This document shows positions 1-8,472 of a stretch of DNA of 8,472 nucleotides, in pieces (within the stretch, counting starts at the first letter, position 1; the number at the start of each line of letters is the position of its first letter). Origin of the DNA: a virus (lineage: Duplodnaviria; Heunggongvirae; Uroviricota; Caudoviricetes); the IMG/VR virus record IMGVR_UViG_2579778919_000012; one strand, written 5' to 3'. The position numbers and the translations under genes were made by a program. Under the pieces are notes generated by a model. The model had not been told where the DNA came from and searched no databases. It was given only the letters and a program-made list of their open reading frames with translations.

Positions 1-648
1 TTACTTCCATCCACACGCTTTTTGAAGTGGCTTCAATGCCTCTGACAGACCAGCAACATCAAATGTCGCACTCACGGGACTTTCATTGTAAGGCGTGATC
101 TGAGTAAACATTGAGTTAGCCTGGCTCAGCGCCTTGACGAACTCGATGACATTGCCACGATAAAATACCGATTTGGTATCGCTAGATATGTCCCATGTTT
201 TCGTTTTTGCCTTCTGTTTATCCAAGCGAGATAACATCTGTGTTTCGTTCAACCCAAGATAGGTATCCCAATTGAGGAAAAGTTCTGTTTTTTTCTCGCG
301 GCAAGTGATGTAAAGACTTGGTGTGATCGATTCCCCAAACTGCGACCGGAAAGAATCATTAGCAGAAAGGCTAACATAAACATTCTCTGAATCATCCACG
401 GGTGAAGTTTTCGTGGATACCTGCCATTTTCCAACACCTACTACTGGCTTAGCCTCTTCGGCTACTTTCGGTGGAAGAACCTTATCGTAACAAGCTAAAC
501 GCGCATCACTTTTTGCCTCGGATTGGCATTTCATTAATGCGTCATTGTTAATATCGGCTTTAACTGGTTCTACCGCATACGCTGTTGATACAGCAGAAGA
601 GCAAAGCGCCATAGCAATGATTATCTTTTTCATACCATTACCTTTCAT
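1..648 (-). CDS. Hypothetical secreted/periplasmic protein (cleavable Sec signal peptide, cysteine-containing mature domain); family not recognised
   Basis: 215-aa ORF. N-terminus MKGNGMKKIIIAMALCSSAVSTAYA-VEP has a hydrophobic core and an AYA cleavage motif; no canonical lipobox. The true start may be the internal ATG at 633 (MKKIII...), which is preceded by AAGG about 7 nt upstream. The annotated ATG at 648 overlaps the upstream gene's stop as ATGA. GC is roughly 43-46% by eye, against 55-62% in the tail genes. Confidence 0.55.
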   Translation of the reverse strand: MKGNGMKKIIIAMALCSSAVSTAYAVEPVKADINNDALMKCQSEAKSDARLACYDKVLPPKVAEEAKPVVGVGKWQVSTKTSPVDDSENVYVSLSANDSFRSQFGESITPSLYITCREKKTELFLNWDTYLGLNETQMLSRLDKQKAKTKTWDISSDTKSVFYRGNVIEFVKALSQANSMFTQITPYNESPVSATFDVAGLSEALKPLQKACGWK

Positions 649-998
649 GATTTCGGGCGAGTAAAGAAAACAAACATTCCGATAATGATATCGCCAATAA
701 CCCAGATGGTTCCCAGCATCATCATCCCCAGCCCCGTACCAATTGCGGCTCCGGCCCGTTCTGCGTCTGAGGCTGCGTTATTGATAACGTCACTACTGCC
801 GCCAGCCCCGGCAAAAATGCAATAGATCATAAAGATGTTAAACAGGATAAATATCCACTTAACGATCTTGCCAAAAAATGAGCGCTTCGGCTTTCTGACC
901 TGATGGCCGCAAGACGGACATTTAAACGCTGAATCACTAATTTCTTTACTGCATTCCGGGCAGTTTACTAATGCCATTTTCCTAGACTCCATAGACAT
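645..998 (-). CDS. Small membrane protein with N-terminal zinc-ribbon (CPEC-x12-CPSC) and two predicted transmembrane helices; function unknown
   Basis: 117-aa ORF. The CxxC...CxxC motif is followed by a basic stretch (RKPKRSFFGK) and two hydrophobic segments (IVKWIFILFNIFMIYCIFAGAGG and MMMLGTIWVIGDIIIGMFVFFT). An alternative start at 977 (MALVNCPEC...) has a better GGAG/AGGA Shine-Dalgarno. The stop overlaps the downstream ORF start (ATGA), suggesting translational coupling. Confidence 0.55.
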   Translation of the reverse strand: MSMESRKMALVNCPECSKEISDSAFKCPSCGHQVRKPKRSFFGKIVKWIFILFNIFMIYCIFAGAGGSSDVINNAASDAERAGAAIGTGLGMMMLGTIWVIGDIIIGMFVFFTRPKS

Positions 999-1040
999 GG
1001 TTACATAACCGCCATAAAGCCTATCAGTTGATTTTGTTTG

Positions 1041-1075
1041 AATAAATAAAAATTAACCCGCCATATAGGCGGGTT
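1041..1075 (-). terminator. Rho-independent terminator downstream of ogr (possibly bidirectional)
   Basis: An 8-bp GC-rich stem (1055-1062 aacccgcc pairing with 1068-1075 ggcgggtt) with a 5-nt loop. On the - strand it is followed by the T-rich tract AATTTTTATTTATT (1054..1041). It lies 3 nt after the ogr stop codon. On the + strand the same hairpin is followed by ATTTT. Confidence 0.6.
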
Positions 1076-1078
1076 ATT

Positions 1079-1321
1079 TTAGAGTGCCAGCGATAACTGA
1101 TCTTCGCCGTGGTGACTTCGTGGAAAAGCTTCTTGTGGCACCATCGCGCCGGGCGCTGGCTGGGTCTGGTTTAGTGAACCGTCTATTTCCGTCATGCTGG
1201 TGAAACAGTACCCGCACAACATATTTTGACACTGGTGATAGCTGCGTCGTACAAGCAAACTCAGCTCAACGCTGGTTCTGGTTTTTGCTATTGCACGGCA
1301 GCGAGGACAGCGCATTGCCAT
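1079..1321 (-). CDS. ogr: Ogr/Delta-family zinc-finger late transcription activator
   Basis: 80-aa ORF with Cys spacing C5-x2-C8-x22-C31-x4-C36 and the motif YHQCQN-x2-C, matching the P2 Ogr zinc finger as I recall it. Strong RBS AAGGAGG 8 nt upstream of the ATG. Sits immediately downstream of gene D, as in P2. Confidence 0.88.
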   Translation of the reverse strand: MAMRCPRCRAIAKTRTSVELSLLVRRSYHQCQNMLCGYCFTSMTEIDGSLNQTQPAPGAMVPQEAFPRSHHGEDQLSLAL

Positions 1322-1369
1322 ACGCGGGCCTCCTTTCAGGACTGGTTAATATCAACGCAAGTATAACGC

Positions 1370-2488
1370 TTAAGACGTTGAATCGTCACTCTCCGCTGTC
1401 CAGTCGTCGATTTTTACTTCCAGTTCCAGCGACGTGGTAAACCCTCCCCCGCCAATATCGTGAACGCACCGCGTTATCGTCCAGTTCCCACTGTCGATCG
1501 TGGACTTAAAGCCGTAGACGCTGGCGGGCTGTTCCGGGTACAAATCTGCGCGGCCACGCGCCAGGGTGATGCTGAACGTAGCCGCACCGCGCTGCAACTC
1601 CCGCCACTTAGCCGCAGCGGCACGCTTCGCCGCCTTTTCCGTCTTGAAGGTTTTACGTATAACAAAAACGTTACCTTCGGCCCCGGCCAGATAATCACCC
1701 TCTTTTTTGCTGGATGCAGGCTCTTTCTTTTTGGCCTGGCTGGTTCGTCGCCTGCGGGTTGTTTTCTTCACGGTAGTGGATGGTTTCTTGCCAAAGTTGA
1801 GATCAAGCCAGTATGCAGTTACGCCCGTGTACGCGTCGCGGTCAGCTACGTTAAAGCTATGTTTATCACCGCTTGACCGGACTATCTCGATCACCGGCAG
1901 CGGCTTGCCGCTCTGCGTCACTCCTTTGCCCGGCGTGATAAACAGAAGCATACCGTTTTTAATGGTTGCCACCGCGCCCAGCATTTCGGCCATGCGCGTT
2001 AAGAAGCTGATATCTGATTCACTCGTCTGATCGGCGTGGTCTATCTCAATCTTCGCCAGTTCTTCGCTGACACCCGCACGCAGATCGTAGCGACTGGCAA
2101 TGCTGGCGACCACATCCCCCACGGTAATATCGTGCCAGCTATATTCCCTTTTCACGTTGAAGGTATCGCGGAAATCTGCGCTTCTGGCACTGATCGTTAG
2201 CTGGTCAGGCGGGCCTGAATGACCTATCTCATCAACCGTATACACGCCCTTAAAAACCAATGGATCATTATCCCAGCCCAGCGCCACCGATATCTTTGCG
2301 CCGCGTGGTGGTAATGCTACCTGCCCGTCTGCATCATCCAGAGTCAGATCCAGCGTGTCCGCTTCAAATCCCCGGTTATCTGTCAGGGAAAGAGAGATCA
2401 ACCGGTTATCCAGCGCCGTAAGCTGATTACCTTCAATTTCAATACTGAACGCCGGGCGCGGCGAATATCGGTTTTCTGTCGTGTCCAT
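1370..2488 (-). CDS. D: Late control gene D protein (P2 gpD family; baseplate hub, VgrG/gp27-like)
   Basis: 372-aa ORF, close to the ~387 aa of P2 gpD, lying directly upstream of ogr on the same strand. RBS GAAGGGG 5 nt before the ATG. Contains an internal Lys/Arg-rich linker. Family call is from recalled similarity and synteny, not a search. Confidence 0.8.
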   Translation of the reverse strand: MDTTENRYSPRPAFSIEIEGNQLTALDNRLISLSLTDNRGFEADTLDLTLDDADGQVALPPRGAKISVALGWDNDPLVFKGVYTVDEIGHSGPPDQLTISARSADFRDTFNVKREYSWHDITVGDVVASIASRYDLRAGVSEELAKIEIDHADQTSESDISFLTRMAEMLGAVATIKNGMLLFITPGKGVTQSGKPLPVIEIVRSSGDKHSFNVADRDAYTGVTAYWLDLNFGKKPSTTVKKTTRRRRTSQAKKKEPASSKKEGDYLAGAEGNVFVIRKTFKTEKAAKRAAAAKWRELQRGAATFSITLARGRADLYPEQPASVYGFKSTIDSGNWTITRCVHDIGGGGFTTSLELEVKIDDWTAESDDSTS

Positions 2489-2645: not shown

Positions 2646-3839
2646 ATGGCCACTAACTACCATCACGGTGTAACCGTCACGGAAACCACCGACCTTAGCA
2701 CGATGATCACCGACATTGATTCGGCGGTGATCGGCGTTGTCTGCACCGCTGATGATGCGGACGAAACAGCGTTCCCGCTGGATACCCCTGTACTGATCAC
2801 CCGCGTGGCTAACATGCTGGGCAAGGCAGGTAAAACCGGCACCCTGTTTACCACCTTGAAAGCGATTTCAGACCAGACCAGCCCGCAAACCATTGTGATC
2901 CGCGTTGCTGATGCTGCAAATATCGAACCGCCAGAAGGCGGCACCGCACAGACACAGGATCAACTGGTTATTGGCGGCACCGATGCAAACGGACGCTTTA
3001 CCGGCATGTACGCGCTGCTGTCTGCCGAAATGCGCGTAGGCGTGCGCCCGCGTGTGCTGGCTGTTCCCGGTCTTGATACGGAAGCGGTGGCCGCACAACT
3101 CGGCGTCATTGCCGAAAAGCTGCGCGCGTTTGCTTACGTGGCAGCGAACGGCTGCAACAGCATCGCCGAAGTGAAGGAATACCGCGAACAGTTCTCCCAG
3201 CGTGAAATGATGGTTATCTGGCCTAATTTCATCTGCTACGACACCAACGCCGGAGCGAATGCCACCGTGCCCGTGGGTGCCCATGCGGTTGGGATGCGCG
3301 CCAAAATCGACGCAACGCAGGGCTGGCATAAAACCATTTCCAACGTGCCCGTTAATAACGTGCTGGGGATGGATCGGGATATCTATTTCACGTTGCAGGG
3401 CACCGATACCGACGCCGACGAACTGAACGCAGCAGGCGTTACCACGCTGATCAAGCAGGACGGCTACCGCATCTGGGGATCGCGTACCTGCGACGCGGAA
3501 ACGTATATCTTCGAAAGCTATACCCGAACCGCGCAGATCGTTGCGGATACCGTCGCCGAAGCACATTTCGCCTATGTTGATAAACCGCTTACCCCGTCGC
3601 TGGTAAAGGACATTGTGGACGGCATCAATAAGAAGCTGACCTCATATGTGACGGCTGGCAAGCTGCTGGGCGCCCGCTGCTGGTATGACCCGGAACCGAA
3701 TACCTCGGAAACCCTGCGCAATGGTCAACTGACCATTAAGTACAACTACACCCCTGTTCCACCGCTGGAAAATCTCAGCCTGGTACAGGAGTTCACCGAC
3801 GAATATTTCGCTACGTTTTCCAGCGCAGTGAATAACTAA
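2646..3839 (+). CDS. FI: Contractile tail sheath protein (P2 gpFI family)
   Basis: 397-aa ORF (P2 FI is ~396 aa). N-terminus MATNYHHGVTV resembles P2 FI (MSDYHHGVQV) as recalled, with conserved-looking blocks such as LRAFAY, WHKT and YTPVPPLENL. RBS GAGG 7 nt upstream. Followed by the tube gene. Confidence 0.9.
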   Translation: MATNYHHGVTVTETTDLSTMITDIDSAVIGVVCTADDADETAFPLDTPVLITRVANMLGKAGKTGTLFTTLKAISDQTSPQTIVIRVADAANIEPPEGGTAQTQDQLVIGGTDANGRFTGMYALLSAEMRVGVRPRVLAVPGLDTEAVAAQLGVIAEKLRAFAYVAANGCNSIAEVKEYREQFSQREMMVIWPNFICYDTNAGANATVPVGAHAVGMRAKIDATQGWHKTISNVPVNNVLGMDRDIYFTLQGTDTDADELNAAGVTTLIKQDGYRIWGSRTCDAETYIFESYTRTAQIVADTVAEAHFAYVDKPLTPSLVKDIVDGINKKLTSYVTAGKLLGARCWYDPEPNTSETLRNGQLTIKYNYTPVPPLENLSLVQEFTDEYFATFSSAVNN

Positions 3840-3851
3840 CCGGGGGCGCTT

Positions 3852-4367
3852 ATGGCACTGCCTAAGAAACTCAAATATTTCAATATGTTCTTTGACGGGG
3901 ATAACTACTTCGGCATGGTGCCGGAAATCACCCCCGCCAAACTCACCAAAAAAACCGAAGACTACCAAGCGGGCGGTATGCCGGGTTCGGTTGCGGTGGA
4001 TCTGGGCTTCGACGCTGGCGCCCTGGATATGGATATCACGCTGGGCGGCATGGATGCAGGGCTAATGAAAAAATGGGGCGTTACCACTGCGGACGGAATG
4101 CAGGTGCGCTTTGCTGGCTCTTACCAGGACGATGCGACCGGCGACGCCGTACCGTGCGAAATCCAGACGCGTGGCCGCTTCACTGAACTGGATCCCGGTT
4201 CGGCAAAGGTTGGGGATGATACTTCGCATAAGTACACCCTGAAAAACACCTATTACAAGCTGACCATCAATAGCGAAGAAATTATCGAAATTGATGTGCT
4301 CAACATGATCTACAAAGTTGCCGGTGTGGATGTGCTGGAAAAACACCGCGCTAACATCGGCTTATAA
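3852..4367 (+). CDS. FII: Tail tube protein (P2 gpFII family)
   Basis: 171-aa ORF (P2 FII is ~172 aa). Begins MALPKKLK and ends HRANIGL, resembling P2 FII as recalled. Sits immediately after the sheath gene, separated by 12 bp. Confidence 0.88.
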   Translation: MALPKKLKYFNMFFDGDNYFGMVPEITPAKLTKKTEDYQAGGMPGSVAVDLGFDAGALDMDITLGGMDAGLMKKWGVTTADGMQVRFAGSYQDDATGDAVPCEIQTRGRFTELDPGSAKVGDDTSHKYTLKNTYYKLTINSEEIIEIDVLNMIYKVAGVDVLEKHRANIGL

Positions 4368-4381
4368 GGAAACCCGGCACC

Positions 4382-4717
4382 ATGAGCAAGACCAAAGAAA
4401 ACACCGTTATTCTTACCGCCCCTATTACGCGCGGTAAGACCAAAATCACCGAAGTGGCGATCACTTCCGTGCTTAAACAGGCTGGATCACTGCGCGGCTT
4501 AAAAGCCTATGACGTGCTGACGTCCAACTATGACGCGCTGGTTATTCTGCTGCCCCGCGTTACCGCTCCGGCATTAACCGCCGATGAGATTGCCCGAATG
4601 GATACCTGGGATTTTTGCCAGTTAGCCAACGCGGTGGTTGATTTTTTGCAACCCTCTTCGGATCTGACCGCGACGGATACGGGCAACGAATCATCCGATG
4701 CCCCTGCGAACGCATAG
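4382..4717 (+). CDS. E: Tail assembly chaperone gpE (zero-frame product)
   Basis: 111-aa ORF between the tube and tape measure genes. RBS AAGGAAAC upstream. Contains the slippery heptamer T_TTT_TTG at 4642-4648 in the frame expected for a -1 shift. Confidence 0.8.
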   Translation: MSKTKENTVILTAPITRGKTKITEVAITSVLKQAGSLRGLKAYDVLTSNYDALVILLPRVTAPALTADEIARMDTWDFCQLANAVVDFLQPSSDLTATDTGNESSDAPANA

Positions 4718-4842
4718 AAGACCTGATGGCAGATATCGCCGTCATATTCCACTGGCGGCCGGTAGAGATGGACGCCATGACGGTACAGGAAATACTGTTA
4801 TGGCGTGATCAGGCGGCTGCGCGCAGTGGTGGAGATCACTAA
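4382..4842 (+). CDS. E': Tail assembly chaperone gpE+E' (-1 frameshift fusion product, about 153 aa)
   Basis: E residues 1-89 followed by 64 codons in the -1 frame (ATLFGSDRDGYGQRIIRCPCERIEDLMADIAVIFHWRPVEMDAMTVQEILLWRDQAAARSGGDH). I translated this by hand and found no stop. The fusion stop TAA (4840-4842) abuts the T start codon at 4843. Confidence 0.6.
4642..4648 (+). other. Programmed -1 ribosomal frameshift slippery site (TTTTTTG) for gpE to gpE+E'
   Basis: The heptamer T TTT TTG is in the X_XXY_YYZ register of the E frame (codons TTT 4643-4645, TTG 4646-4648). The -1 frame is open from 4648 to a TAA at 4840-4842. The same heptamer is used in P2 E/E'. Confidence 0.65.
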
Positions 4843-7800
4843 ATGGCAGACCGCAATTTAAATATCAGGGTGGCATTCAGCGCCCTGAATAATATGTCCC
4901 GCCCTGTCAACGCGGCGCGCCAGAGTGCCGCCGCGTTGGCGTCTCAAATCAATCAGACCAAAACCAGCATTAAAGGGCTTGAGCGTCAGGCAACCAGCTT
5001 TGACCGCCTCACCGCAGCCAATAAAAAAACCACCGAACAACTGGCCCAGGCGAAAGAACAGGCCCGGCAAATGGCGGCGGCTTATGGCCCGTTACGCCAG
5101 CGCAGCGCCGAACAGGTTGCCGCCCTCAATCAGCAACGTGCAGCCATTCGCCAGTTAACCCAGCAGCAGAAAGGCGAGCAGACGCAGCTTAACCAGTTGC
5201 GCGCCAGCTTCTACAGCGAAGGCATTGCGATCAGCAGCGCCAGCCGGGCGACGGAACAGATCAACCAGCGCACCGCGCAATACAACCGCCAGCTTGCCGA
5301 ACAGCAGCGACGGCTTGACGCTGTTAACCAGGCGCAGGCCCGTTACAGCCGCGCCAAAGAAACCGGCGAAAAGATGATGAGCGGGGGGATGAAAACCGCC
5401 GCAGTAGGGGCGGCAACCCTCGCACCTGTCGCCGCTGCGGTTAAATCATACAGCAGCCTTGAAGACGCCATGAAAGGCGTAGCCAAACAGGTAAACGGCT
5501 TGCGTGACGACAGCGGCAACCGCACCCCGCAGTATGAAGAAATGCAGCGGGCGATCATGGATGCCAGCGAAAAGCTACCAATGGCTAACGGCGCTGTTGA
5601 CTATGCCGCCCTGGTCGAAGGTGGCGCGCGCATGGGCGTGGCAAACAGCGATGATCCGTGGGAAAAACAAAAAGCCGATCTGCTGGCTTTCGCCAGCATG
5701 GCGGCAAAAGCTTCGGTAGCCTTTGAACTGCCCGCCGATCAGCTTTCTGAAAGCCTCGGTAAGATTGCCGGGCTGTATAAAATCCCTACCCAGAATATTG
5801 AACAGTTAGGCGACGCCATAAACTACCTGGACGATAACGCGAAGTCGAAAGGCTCCGATATTATCGACGTGCTCCAGCGCGTTGGCGGACTTGCCAGCCA
5901 ACTGGATTACAAGCAAGCCGCCGCGCTGGGTTCCACCTTCCTGACGCTTGGATCACCTGCCGAAGTTGCCGCCAGCGCAACCAATGCAATGGTGCGCGAA
6001 CTATCGATCGCCACAGTACAAAGCGATAAATTTTTGGGTGCGCTGGATGAAATCGGCATCAATGCTGAAAAAGTCCAGAAAAGCATGTCAGTGGACGCGA
6101 TGGGCACGATCATTTCAGTGCTGGAAGCGTCCAAAAAACTTGCACCAGATAAGCAGGTAGCCAACCTTACTCAGATTTTCGGTAAAGAGTTCGGCGATGA
6201 TGCGCAGAAACTTGCGAACAACCTGCCCGAACTACGCCGCCAGATAGAACTGACGCAGGGCGCAGCCGCTAAAGGTTCCATGAATCGGGAATCTGATATC
6301 AATAAAGCGTCCCTTTCAGCTCAGTGGCAACTGACCAAAACCGGCGCGGTTAACGCATTGAGTTCAGCAGGGGAAACGCTCCGCGAACCGCTGATGGATA
6401 TCATGCTTACCGTCAGTAAGGTGGTTGGCAGCGTCCGCCGCTGTGTTGAGGCAAACCCGGCTCTGGTTGGCTCAATCATGAAAGTCACCGCAGCCATAGG
6501 CGCGTTGCTGGTTGTCGTGGGTGGCCTGATGCTGACCATCGGCGCAGTGCTCGGCCCGATGGCACTTGTTCGCCTCAGCTTCACCACGCTGGCTGGCTCC
6601 GGTGGGGTAACTCCCCTCATAGGCTCGCTGGGAAAATTATCCAGCACATTACGCGGGCTGATCCCCTCACTATCTGGCGTGGGCCGAAGTATTAAAGACT
6701 GGCCTGCCCTCTTCCGATCTGCTGCGTCTGGCATTACCCAATTTAGTAAACAAGCTATTGGCGGGTTAAACACAGCGTTAATGGCACTTTCACGCGGTGC
6801 TGTTGCTGCCGGACAGGGGCTATTTACCCTATTCACAAGGCCTATGACGGCTATAACCTGGCTTGGTAATGGCCTCAGAACTCTGGCGACCTCCGGTTTC
6901 GGCGCTTTGCTGAACGTTGGACGCACCGTAATGATGGCGTTGGGTGGCGGGTTATCATTACTTCTTAGCCCTATTGGAATACTGGTAATCGCTTTATCAG
7001 CAGCAGCGATCGCCGTTATTAAATTCTGGGAACCTATAAAAGCCTTTTTCACTGGCTTTTACACCGGGTTAATGAGTGGCTTACAGCCTTTAACCTCAGC
7101 ATTTAGTACAGCCTTTGCACCACTAGCCCCACTCTTTGACTCTATCGGTAATGCTGTCGGTGGCGTCTGGGAGTGGTTCACAAAACTATTCGAACCTATC
7201 CAGTTCTCCAGCGAAGCGCTAGCCTCCTGCACCAGTGCCGGGGAAACGTTCGGTAAGGTTGTAGGTAACGCTCTATCTGCATTAACACCAATAATCGAAG
7301 GAATAGCGCGCGGTATAGGATGGGTACTGGAAAAACTCGGCGCCATCCCCGACGCAACAAAAGCAGCGCAGCAAGCTGCGGAAAGTATGCACAAAGACCC
7401 TGTTGTCTGGGAGTGGGATCCGCAGCAAAAGAAAATGGTTAAAAAGGGTTGGAACTGGTCGCCGAAAGACGATCAGCAGAAGAAAACCAACCAGAAGCAA
7501 CAGCAGGCCATTGACCAGCAGAAAAAGCAGGAAAGCTTAATTAACTCGCTCAAGGGCCCGGCCAACATCGTGCCGAAGATGAGCAGCAGCCTGGATAAGA
7601 TCGCCACCAATACCACGGAGAAGAAAGACGGCCCCGGCGAAATTGTCTTCAAGAATAAGCAGCCCTATATCCCGATCCGTGGTGGATATTCGGAACCGCT
7701 TAAGCAGGTGCAGCGCCAACTACCATCCCTTACCGATTGGGTGACGCAGCAGGCCGGATCGCTGATCGCTTCCGTTACGCCTTGGCAGGTTGAGAAGCCC

Positions 7801-8013
7801 GCCGCACGGATGCCTGTTTCGGCGTCTCCGTCTGCGGCTTCCGTCGCTGCGCTGATGCCTGCTCCGGGTGGCGATGTATATAACCTTAACTTCGACTTTA
7901 GCGGCCAGAAACTGGATGAAGAAACCATTATCAGGCGCGTGCGCGAAGAACTTGCGTTAGCGAAGCAACAGGCCGACCGGCGCAAGCGCTCCCAACTGAC
8001 CGATCACGTCTAA
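4843..8013 (+). CDS. T: Tail tape measure protein (P2 gpT family)
   Basis: 1056-aa ORF in the canonical position after E/E'. It has a Gln/Ala-rich N-terminal coiled-coil-like region, a central Gly/Ala/Leu-rich hydrophobic segment and a Lys/Gln-rich C-terminal stretch, all typical of tape measure proteins. It is longer than P2 gpT (~815 aa). Confidence 0.9.
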   Translation: MADRNLNIRVAFSALNNMSRPVNAARQSAAALASQINQTKTSIKGLERQATSFDRLTAANKKTTEQLAQAKEQARQMAAAYGPLRQRSAEQVAALNQQRAAIRQLTQQQKGEQTQLNQLRASFYSEGIAISSASRATEQINQRTAQYNRQLAEQQRRLDAVNQAQARYSRAKETGEKMMSGGMKTAAVGAATLAPVAAAVKSYSSLEDAMKGVAKQVNGLRDDSGNRTPQYEEMQRAIMDASEKLPMANGAVDYAALVEGGARMGVANSDDPWEKQKADLLAFASMAAKASVAFELPADQLSESLGKIAGLYKIPTQNIEQLGDAINYLDDNAKSKGSDIIDVLQRVGGLASQLDYKQAAALGSTFLTLGSPAEVAASATNAMVRELSIATVQSDKFLGALDEIGINAEKVQKSMSVDAMGTIISVLEASKKLAPDKQVANLTQIFGKEFGDDAQKLANNLPELRRQIELTQGAAAKGSMNRESDINKASLSAQWQLTKTGAVNALSSAGETLREPLMDIMLTVSKVVGSVRRCVEANPALVGSIMKVTAAIGALLVVVGGLMLTIGAVLGPMALVRLSFTTLAGSGGVTPLIGSLGKLSSTLRGLIPSLSGVGRSIKDWPALFRSAASGITQFSKQAIGGLNTALMALSRGAVAAGQGLFTLFTRPMTAITWLGNGLRTLATSGFGALLNVGRTVMMALGGGLSLLLSPIGILVIALSAAAIAVIKFWEPIKAFFTGFYTGLMSGLQPLTSAFSTAFAPLAPLFDSIGNAVGGVWEWFTKLFEPIQFSSEALASCTSAGETFGKVVGNALSALTPIIEGIARGIGWVLEKLGAIPDATKAAQQAAESMHKDPVVWEWDPQQKKMVKKGWNWSPKDDQQKKTNQKQQQAIDQQKKQESLINSLKGPANIVPKMSSSLDKIATNTTEKKDGPGEIVFKNKQPYIPIRGGYSEPLKQVQRQLPSLTDWVTQQAGSLIASVTPWQVEKPAARMPVSASPSAASVAALMPAPGGDVYNLNFDFSGQKLDEETIIRRVREELALAKQQADRRKRSQLTDHV

Positions 8014-8022
8014 GGCAATATC

Positions 8023-8472
8023 ATGATGATGATTCTGGGGATGTTCCCCTTTTCACTGCAAACCACACCTTACCAGAGTGCGAATAAAACCAACTCCTGG
8101 CGGCACGTCAAAAACGATCGCGTGGGGAAATCCCCGCGCTATCAGTTCATCGGCGCAGATGAAGAACCGTTCGTACTCAGCGGCACGCTGTACCCCGAAA
8201 TAAGCGGCGGTGATGTGTCGCTTGTCATGCTGGAAACTATGGCTTTTTCCGGGCGCCCGTGGCCCCTGATAGAAGGCACGGGCAGGATCTACGGCATGTA
8301 TGTAATTGAGCAGATCACGCAAAACCGGACGGAGTTTTTTAAGGACGGGAAGGCAAAGAAAATTGATTTCACGCTCAACCTGAAACGGGTAAGCGAGGAC
8401 ATACGGGAAAAGCTGGCTGAAACCACTACCGACGATCTCTTCTCTCTGGTGAAAACCAACCTTTCGATATAA
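8023..8472 (+). CDS. U: Tail protein gpU (P2 GpU family)
   Basis: 149-aa ORF directly after T (P2 gpU is ~159 aa). N-terminus MMMILGMFPF and the blocks RPWPLIEGTGRIYGMYVI and RTEFFKDG resemble P2 gpU as recalled. The stop codon is the last triplet of the window. Confidence 0.85.
   Translation: MMMILGMFPFSLQTTPYQSANKTNSWRHVKNDRVGKSPRYQFIGADEEPFVLSGTLYPEISGGDVSLVMLETMAFSGRPWPLIEGTGRIYGMYVIEQITQNRTEFFKDGKAKKIDFTLNLKRVSEDIREKLAETTTDDLFSLVKTNLSI

Follow-up and report, generated by a model that had tools for sequence, protein, structure and literature searches.

Positions 1–1078 of the 8,472-nt stretch of DNA analysed here (the window; IMG/VR virus record IMGVR_UViG_2579778919_000012, Caudoviricetes) form a self-contained moron that occupies the extreme right end of a P2-like (Senquatrovirus-like) prophage. 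A six-frame open reading frame (ORF) list shows this cassette to be filled by two coupled minus-strand genes, and it is highly probable that the prophage moron makes a membrane-periplasm pair, consisting of a zinc-ribbon protein of the inner membrane that resembles the Escherichia coli division protein DrpB and an exported protein of the VasI/TagO family. The two genes and the parts of their products are the following.

1..648, minus strand: gene for the exported VasI/TagO-family protein, 215 amino acids (aa), or 210 aa from a second ATG at 631–633.
~574–633, minus strand: Sec signal peptide of the exported protein, MKKIIIAMALCSSAVSTAYA|VEP, with an A-x-A site and predicted cleavage at A25|V26.
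645..648, minus strand: ATGA stop/start overlap of both genes, read directly from the sequence.
645..977, minus strand: gene for the inner-membrane zinc-ribbon/DrpB-like protein, 110 aa; the mechanical ORF runs to 998 and gives 117 aa.
~648–896, minus strand: DrpB-homologous two-helix hairpin (N-in/C-in), ending in an invariant FTRPK motif.
~897–977, minus strand: cytoplasmic C4 zinc ribbon at the N-terminus of the membrane protein.

In E. coli 730V1 the prophage that carries the cassette is complete, P2-like and integrated between fieF and cpxP; its closest named phages are Salmonella SEN4 and SEN5 (Senquatrovirus). To place the attachment site (att) boundaries, we aligned the junctions at both ends of the prophage to the attP region found in a circular 32-kb relative. 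A 42-bp att core, AAAAAAAACCCCCACATCATGTGGGGGAAGACAGGGATGGTG, is duplicated at both prophage ends; the cassette lies between the duplicated cores, the empty site is without it, and the P' arm of the phage reaches within ~25 bp of the outer cassette gene. In ~5,421 E. coli genomes the fieF flank is shared as far as L001:19887 and no further; the outer gene has its stop codon 113 bp beyond that point. The duplicated core, the P' arm and the flanking terminators thus assign the cassette to the attP–ogr slot of the prophage itself and not to the host flank. An earlier reading of this DNA, made from its letters alone (the sequence-only reading), had left both possibilities standing, accessory moron or host flank, and had proposed an alignment against related prophages and prophage-free genomes; this comparison decides for accessory cargo in a variable slot, with the att boundary at the 42-bp core. 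The notion that two core chromosomal genes merely abut the prophage, to which the window-edge position beyond ogr (where P2 has attP) lent some colour, is refuted by the ending of the shared flank at the att core, by the empty site and by the occurrence of the same gene pair at a different att (flk/yfcJ) in other prophages.

As expected of a moron, the cassette lies between backbone elements and is variably present in close relatives. By megablast, the whole 1–1400 stretch is found at 99.4–99.5% identity in only 3 of 5,426 complete E. coli genomes, while ~75 other prophages have an ogr-D region at least 90% identical and carry other cargo, with homology breaking at 1055–1077, inside the ogr terminator. 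A homologue of the pair is present, at a prophage end, in 240 of the same 5,426 genomes (~4.4%), the allele described here in three. The corresponding slot holds a 127-aa lipoprotein (SEN5_30) in SEN5 and a 215-aa membrane protein with two transmembrane (TM) segments in the circular 32-kb relative, and toxin morons for Hok/Gef (MokW-like) and RES NAD+ phosphorylase separate ogr from the zinc-ribbon/VasI pair in other P2-like prophages of E. coli (L005 4080–4220; L099–L101 4493–5657 and 6073–6213). To judge from these sequences, the ogr-att slot of P2-like phages takes envelope-directed cargo; published P2 hotspot maps do not single out the ogr-att side.

Deviant base composition is a further mark of a moron, and the cassette is AT-richer than both phage and host. 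Its GC content is 43.5% over 1–1078 (43.2% and 45.8% in its genes), against 54.5% in the remaining 7.4 kb of the window (51–56% in single phage genes) and 51.8% in the E. coli flank of the genome carrying the prophage. The lowest value of any other 1078-nt window in the stretch is 50.7%, and the best change point falls at ~1104, <30 nt from the ogr stop. The sequence-only reading had seen, by eye, a GC drop at the ogr terminator; the drop is real, but the 55–62% quoted for the neighbouring genes matches local peaks only. The compositional difference from the host for which it had proposed a windowed calculation is likewise present.

The zinc-ribbon protein starts at M8 of the mechanical ORF (window position 977, 110 aa) in RefSeq and in the PHROG alignment. 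A CPEC...CPSC C4 ribbon leads into the basic stretch RKPKRSFFGK, after which two long helices (residues 34–66 and 71–105) form a hairpin in the AlphaFold2 (AF2) model (pLDDT 79), and basic residues flank both cytoplasmic ends of the hairpin in the family alignment. The predicted topology is that described for DrpB (PMC7648144), with two TM helices, both termini in the cytoplasm and a short periplasmic loop. The protein matches phrog_6586 (E 5e-39) and belongs to a family of tightly conserved length (109–111 aa) with at least 57% identity across Enterobacterales, Pasteurellaceae and Rhizobiaceae (57–65% in the latter two). Two polar residues, the invariant N47 and the nearly invariant D96, fall within the predicted TM helices.

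Profile comparisons identify this protein as a DrpB homologue with an added zinc ribbon. The NCBIfam DrpB/YedR model NF038392 matches 37 of 39 family members over model positions 3–84 of 86 (best E 5e-8), and precomputed Pfam assignments place PF28000 (PF28000.1) in all DrpB homologues and in ~20 members of the zinc-ribbon family. Alignment of the family with 23 DrpB homologues in hhalign gave a probability of 94.5%, E 8e-8 and a score of 46.1 over 78 columns; 300 shuffled controls that kept the composition and the TM/loop layout scored 14.3±3.3 with a maximum of 28.9, and a reversed alignment scored 15.9. Against a single DrpB sequence the hhalign match was weak (34%, E 4e-4), so that the relationship is convincing only with the DrpB family alignment and the shuffle controls. 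Residues R14, G18, F25, T89 and P91 of DrpB align with the invariant or near-invariant R32, G36, F43, T106 and P108. In the F-T-R-P-K motif, T106 is invariant and R107, P108 and K109 are at least 90% conserved, and the motif is aligned to T89-R-P-R of DrpB. The conservation of DrpB itself is reported as strongest at the distal end of the second TM helix (TMH2) (PMC7648144), and T89A is the one point mutant that abolished its RcsF-independent activation of the Rcs phosphorelay (PMC11709261). DrpB was earlier described as having no conserved domain and no homologues beyond the closest relatives of E. coli (PMC7648144); our profile search of 1.84 billion representatives returned 379 clusters (at 50% identity) with E ≤1e-10, among them ribbon-less proteins of DrpB size and fusions.

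DrpB (YedR; PF28000, NF038392) is a non-essential divisome protein of E. coli that localises to the septal ring and in multicopy activates Rcs, independently of RcsF, and Psp (PMC11709261, PMC7648144). Suppression of an ftsEX deletion in multicopy is a further trait of DrpB. With it the phage protein has in common the two-TM hairpin, N-in/C-in, with a short periplasmic turn, a juxtamembrane R-S-x-x-G-K...W-x-F motif and a terminal (F/Y)-T-R-P-(K/R) motif at distal TMH2 that includes the Thr at DrpB position 89 and reads W-Y-T-R-P-R in DrpB and F-T-R-P-K in the phage protein. The phage protein differs from DrpB in its N-terminal C4 ribbon, the invariant intramembrane Asn, the near-invariant Asp and a Gly-rich AERAGAAIGTGLG turn; it is also borne by phages and mobile elements, has a range far wider than Enterobacteriaceae and comes coupled to an exported protein.

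The exported protein matches the Pfam family VasI (PF11319) with 50.4 bits (gathering cut-off 26.5) over residues 40–214 and model positions 1–184 of 184, and belongs to phrog_1848. Against TIGR03360 it scores 41 bits, below the equivalog cut-off of 124.2, so its RefSeq name, “T6SS-associated protein TagO” (T6SS, type VI secretion system), is a domain-level transfer. RefSeq starts the protein at the ATGA. The second ATG (631–633) lies 15 nt downstream and has a better-spaced AGG; from this start the signal peptide has a canonical MKK n-region and reads MKK-hydrophobic-AYA|V. With either start the gap between the two genes is ≤15 nt. The signal peptide is followed by a Cys-x11-Cys helical hairpin (C41...RLACYD) and then by an IalB-like beta-sandwich. 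Cysteines C41, C53, C116 and C212 are invariant in 47 homologues, C116/C212 being a second conserved pair. The AF2 model (pLDDT 85, >95 in the beta-domain) has a beta-sandwich joined by a linker to a small helical hairpin, and the predicted fold is that of an IalB-like periplasmic beta-sandwich. A sequence search of the Protein Data Bank (PDB) with the VasI-like protein returned chance matches only (E >0.5), and a BFVD fold search returned uncharacterised phage proteins only.

VasI/TagO/EvfG (PF11319, TIGR03360) is an accessory protein of some T6SS clusters, and IalB (PF06776, PDB 3dtd) is structurally related to it. The phage protein differs from VasI/TagO in that its gene stands at a prophage end, outside any T6SS cluster, and comes coupled to one for a DrpB-like protein, and in that it stays below the TIGR03360 cut-off. 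The function of TagO is stated to be unknown (PMC6653060), and IalB-domain proteins are likewise uncharacterised, RgsG of S. meliloti being an essential periplasmic factor at the growing pole. The sequence-only reading had proposed a zinc ribbon with two TM helices, a Sec signal peptide, envelope-directed products and translational coupling through an ATGA, and the CPEC...CPSC ribbon, the two-helix hairpin, the A-x-A signal peptide and the shared ATGA at 645–648 bear it out on each of these. Its statement that neither protein could be assigned to a known family no longer holds, since Pfam places one in VasI/TagO, PF28000/NF038392 make the other a DrpB homologue, and both are in PHROG families.

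Gene order links the two proteins closely. INPHARED has 19 phage records in which the membrane protein is matched by a full-length homologue, and in all 19 a VasI-like gene stands immediately downstream; 51 of 80 IMG/VR loci have the order ogr, zinc-ribbon/DrpB-like gene, VasI-like gene, with junctions of −4 to +10 nt. A natural fusion, P0462 (310 aa), joins a DrpB-like hairpin, a third TM segment and a VasI domain in one chain; its VasI domain scores 38.3 bits in Pfam and aligns with the phage VasI family in hhalign at 99.6% (E 5e-24), its predicted topology puts VasI in the periplasm, and its context appears to be non-phage. In two further fusions, P0400 and P0430, the hairpin is joined to an exported oligonucleotide/oligosaccharide-binding (OB)-fold domain. 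At loci without VasI the gene is usually followed by a different signal-peptide protein: an Excalibur-like protein, a ~110-aa PRYDV...C family, a staphylococcal-nuclease (SNase) homologue, a BLIP/DUF3862-like lipoprotein or, in Agrobacterium, a Cys-rich protein. As far as sequence comparison can tell, the two proteins evidently work as a pair in which the DrpB-type hairpin is the conserved component and the periplasmic partner is exchangeable, and we infer that they form a physical complex.

A few related arrangements deserve mention in their own right. We had considered P0072 (243 aa, from a single Logan contig) as a Rosetta-stone fusion, and downgraded it in favour of P0462: its ribbon is in-frame with a VasI-like signal peptide and the TM helices are missing, so that a normal pair has probably undergone an internal, in-frame deletion there. 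In some E. coli prophages and on a plasmid of enterotoxigenic E. coli (ETEC), a 297-aa TagO-like gene is split into coding sequences (CDS) of 93 and 188 aa (L099/L100 3068–3978) beside an intact zinc-ribbon/DrpB-like gene, which suggests decay of the exported partner. The 142-kb ETEC plasmid carries an ogr-hok-zinc-ribbon-TagO fragment beside a group II intron. In Agrobacterium, the gene upstream of the zinc-ribbon/DrpB-like gene (L008 5283–5990) codes for a second zinc-ribbon protein of 235 aa with one TM segment and a periplasmic domain, and a reverse transcriptase, an STM3845-family gene, a resolvase and insertion sequence (IS) elements give the island the look of a defence island.

The signals around the two genes bear on how the cassette is expressed.

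999..1010, minus strand: small dyad GGTTA-TG-TAACC, downstream of the promoter-like element and ahead of the start codon.
1018..1026, minus strand: candidate extended −10 of a cassette promoter (TG-A-TAGGCT), weak, from positional alignment with sister cassettes.
1054..1076, minus strand: ogr intrinsic terminator, from a terminator scan; inner boundary of the cargo slot.
1079..1321, minus strand: ogr/Delta late activator (PF04606, 50.9 bits), conserved phage backbone.
L001 19971–19989, just outside the window, 12–30 nt beyond its position 1: the cassette's own intrinsic terminator, GCCCCGTAATGCACGGGGC followed by a T run.

Morons typically have a promoter and terminator of their own. The terminator of the cassette is clear and strong in the scan; as a promoter, this allele offers no more than a weak extended −10. 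On the inner side, the cassette adjoins an ogr gene 98.8% identical to that of SEN4/SEN5 and is set apart from it by a GC-rich terminator of 9 bp. Diverged sister cassettes have a near-consensus TTGTCA-N17-TAAAAT directly after the ogr terminator, and solely by alignment with them we take TG-A-TAGGCT as a candidate promoter element. At the position aligned with the dyad the sister cassettes have a different one, TTTGT-A-ACAAA; the dyad could be an operator or a hairpin in the 5' untranslated region. HP1-like prophages have the zinc-ribbon/DrpB-like gene 31 nt behind cI and in the same orientation; this favours its expression in their lysogens, and by analogy expression in a lysogen of the present prophage is plausible.

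The explanation we favour, at a probability somewhat short of even, is a two-part envelope module that protects the lysogen. The DrpB-type hairpin would be a membrane-embedded docking or targeting subunit that holds or positions the periplasmic partner at the face of the inner membrane, with a docking site that, by analogy with DrpB, would probably be cell-wall or division-associated machinery; the zinc ribbon would provide a cytoplasmic contact. The exported VasI/IalB-fold protein would then be the periplasmic effector or specificity subunit, and the pair would alter the envelope of the lysogen so as to exclude superinfecting phages or another envelope-penetrating attack. That the phenotype is exclusion or protection we put forward more tentatively, on the ground that this is the usual role of small morons for membrane and periplasmic proteins at junctions of phage genomes (PMC3594210, PMC10883804, PMC6832061). 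The sequence-only reading had named an envelope-acting conversion, exclusion or defence module as a hypothesis, and a hypothesis it still is. With the superinfection-exclusion morons HK97 gp15, T4 Imm and Sp, P22 SieA and the cryptic-prophage DicB, the cassette has in common that it is a probably independent transcription unit of deviant GC at a genome junction (PMC3594210, PMC10883804, PMC6832061). T4 Imm (membrane) and Sp (periplasm) likewise join a small inner-membrane protein with a periplasmic partner, and DicB is a precedent for a division-related prophage protein that also blocks phage entry. The likeness is one of architecture and position only, however, with no homology of sequence or fold; PHROGs and Pfam scans gave no homology to Imm/Sp, gp15 or SieA.

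Several observations weigh against this explanation. Both partners also occur alone, a VasI-like gene in Limnobaculum and a zinc-ribbon/DrpB-like gene in Pantoea, where it is fixed between cueR and copA (L014–L017 6001–6333; L016 6824–7846), 438 bp from a P2-like attB, so that the complex is not obligatory. The only source of the fusion P0462 is one metagenomic contig of 3.2 kb. Against NF038392 the window protein reaches 24.9 bits (E 1.9e-5), short of the equivalog cut-off of 50 bits, and is thus a homologue of DrpB and not an equivalog; DrpB itself is without a zinc ribbon. A consensus sigma-70 scan of 999–1053 called no promoter, and with so weak an element transcription of this allele could need read-through from ogr, in the lytic cycle. 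Of the searches that the sequence-only reading had proposed, that of Pfam yielded families and that of PADLOC no defence system: in a scan of PADLOC-DB 2.0.0 the exported protein had 0 matches, and the zinc-ribbon protein had only matches of E ≥0.04 to Cas12/LmuB zinc-finger stretches.

For the solo gene in Pantoea we considered, and rejected, an att overlapping the gene, because the homology between empty and occupied sites runs 438 bp beyond it. The gene resembles a retained prophage-end relic, in parallel with the notion of host drpB as a copy that lost or lacks the ribbon and became domesticated.

A wider version of the protective module, which we regard as rather improbable, takes the hairpin for a widespread, phage-spread inner-membrane adaptor on conserved cell-wall or division machinery. 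It would present interchangeable exported effectors (VasI/IalB-fold, staphylococcal-nuclease-like, Excalibur, BLIP-like and OB-fold) that protect the membrane on its periplasmic side against phage or T6SS attack, and host DrpB, the solo Pantoea gene and possibly the VasI of T6SS clusters would be domesticated pieces of it.

Protection need not be direct. The pair might instead modulate envelope stress or division, acting like over-expressed DrpB on RcsC or the divisome to turn on Rcs (capsule) and/or Psp or to alter septation, with the benefit (capsule-mediated resistance to phage or T6SS, or biofilm) arising through signalling. Such a role is unlikely, without being far-fetched. The homology takes in the TRP(K/R) motif with the Thr needed for Rcs activation (PMC11709261), and the effects of multicopy DrpB on Rcs and Psp and its place at the septal ring (PMC11709261, PMC7648144) point the same way, as does the IalB-domain protein RgsG at the growing pole, essential in S. 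meliloti. The effects of DrpB are seen on over-expression only, however, and may reflect membrane stress, and the exported partner is left without a role. Moreover, Pasteurellaceae and Rhizobiaceae are not known to have the Rcs phosphorelay. Since the family has members in both groups, at 57–65% identity, Rcs activation is not its family-wide role, and we rejected it as the conserved function.

An abortive-infection or toxic membrane effector would use the same parts differently: the ribbon would sense a component of an incoming phage, the hairpin would oligomerise through Asn47 and Asp96 and depolarise the membrane, and the exported protein would modulate the effect. A zinc ribbon combined with TM helices is an architecture that recurs in defence effectors; the conservation of N47 and D96 within the predicted TM helices, the presence of a reverse transcriptase, a resolvase and IS elements in the island of the Agrobacterium copy, and the toxins (Hok/Gef, RES) among neighbouring morons of the slot would all suit such an effector. 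Yet ribbon-less versions are common, the DrpB relative is non-toxic, neither protein has a PADLOC match, and solo chromosomal fixation in Pantoea makes a toxin without an antidote unlikely. We consider an effector of this kind very unlikely.

We think it just as doubtful that the pair helps the lytic cycle, being made by late read-through of the ogr terminator and serving morphogenesis, lysis or release, for example through a change in septal peptidoglycan or by preventing re-adsorption of progeny. The cassette does follow ogr directly and in the same orientation, this allele has a weak promoter, and VasI/IalB-fold proteins occur in strictly lytic T4-like phages, among them RB16, KP15 and Aeromonas 65.2. 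Against this, the 9-bp GC-rich terminator stands between ogr and the cassette, a near-consensus sigma-70 promoter is present in sister cassettes, HP1-like phages have the gene behind the lysogeny repressor, and the cassette is dispensable in most relatives.

A genuine T6SS accessory factor, that is, a TagO/VasI subunit with a membrane partner supplied to the T6SS of the host, is more improbable still. The match to PF11319, the RefSeq name and the listing of the PhiSM homologue as T6SS VasI cargo in 2019 (PMC6456863) speak for it. The TIGR03360 score, however, falls far short of the cut-off, the partner gene is swapped for unrelated exported proteins, and a link to TagO leads to a protein whose own function is stated as unknown (PMC6653060). 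No T6SS genes were found in the contexts examined (prophage ends, mobile islands and solo genes), and in the present prophage fieF/att borders the cassette at its outer end, with ogr, D and tail genes at the inner end.

RefSeq already annotates both genes, as “zinc ribbon domain-containing protein” and “TagO”, and their PHROGs are of undefined function. Our literature search found no functional work on TagO/VasI, or on VasI/IalB or DrpB-like proteins carried by phages; the DrpB homology that the profiles indicate for the zinc-ribbon protein, its regular coupling or fusion to exported proteins of the VasI fold and other kinds, and an envelope slot between ogr and att were absent from the literature searched. 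These comparisons place DrpB in a large family on phages and mobile elements across Proteobacteria, usually with a zinc ribbon and genetically coupled, sometimes fused, to VasI-fold and other exported proteins. Two orphan proteins thereby become one testable membrane-periplasm module, and the ogr-att slot is flagged for envelope cargo beside the published defence hotspots. Should the module exclude phage or buffer an envelope attack, it would bear on prophage-mediated immunity and on the Rcs phenotype of DrpB; if the wider adaptor proposal were true, it would give a first functional handle on DrpB and TagO/VasI; and if the module had no measurable effect, it would be one further uncharacterised moron.

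The rest of the prophage offers three minor observations. D and ogr (window 1079–2488, minus strand) are divergent from FI-FII-E-T-U (2646–8472, plus strand), whereas FETUD and ogr of P2 are co-linear; SEN4/SEN5, 500465-2, PhiR44_2 and PhiSM have the same divergent layout. The tail-chaperone gene E/E' (window 4382–4842) is annotated in RefSeq as two CDS, 4382–4717 and 4768–4842, and not as the product of a programmed frameshift. Outside the window, at L001 28580–31163, a recombinase-family gene is flanked by tail-fibre and tail-fibre-assembly genes in opposite orientations, a pattern suggestive of an invertible segment for host range.

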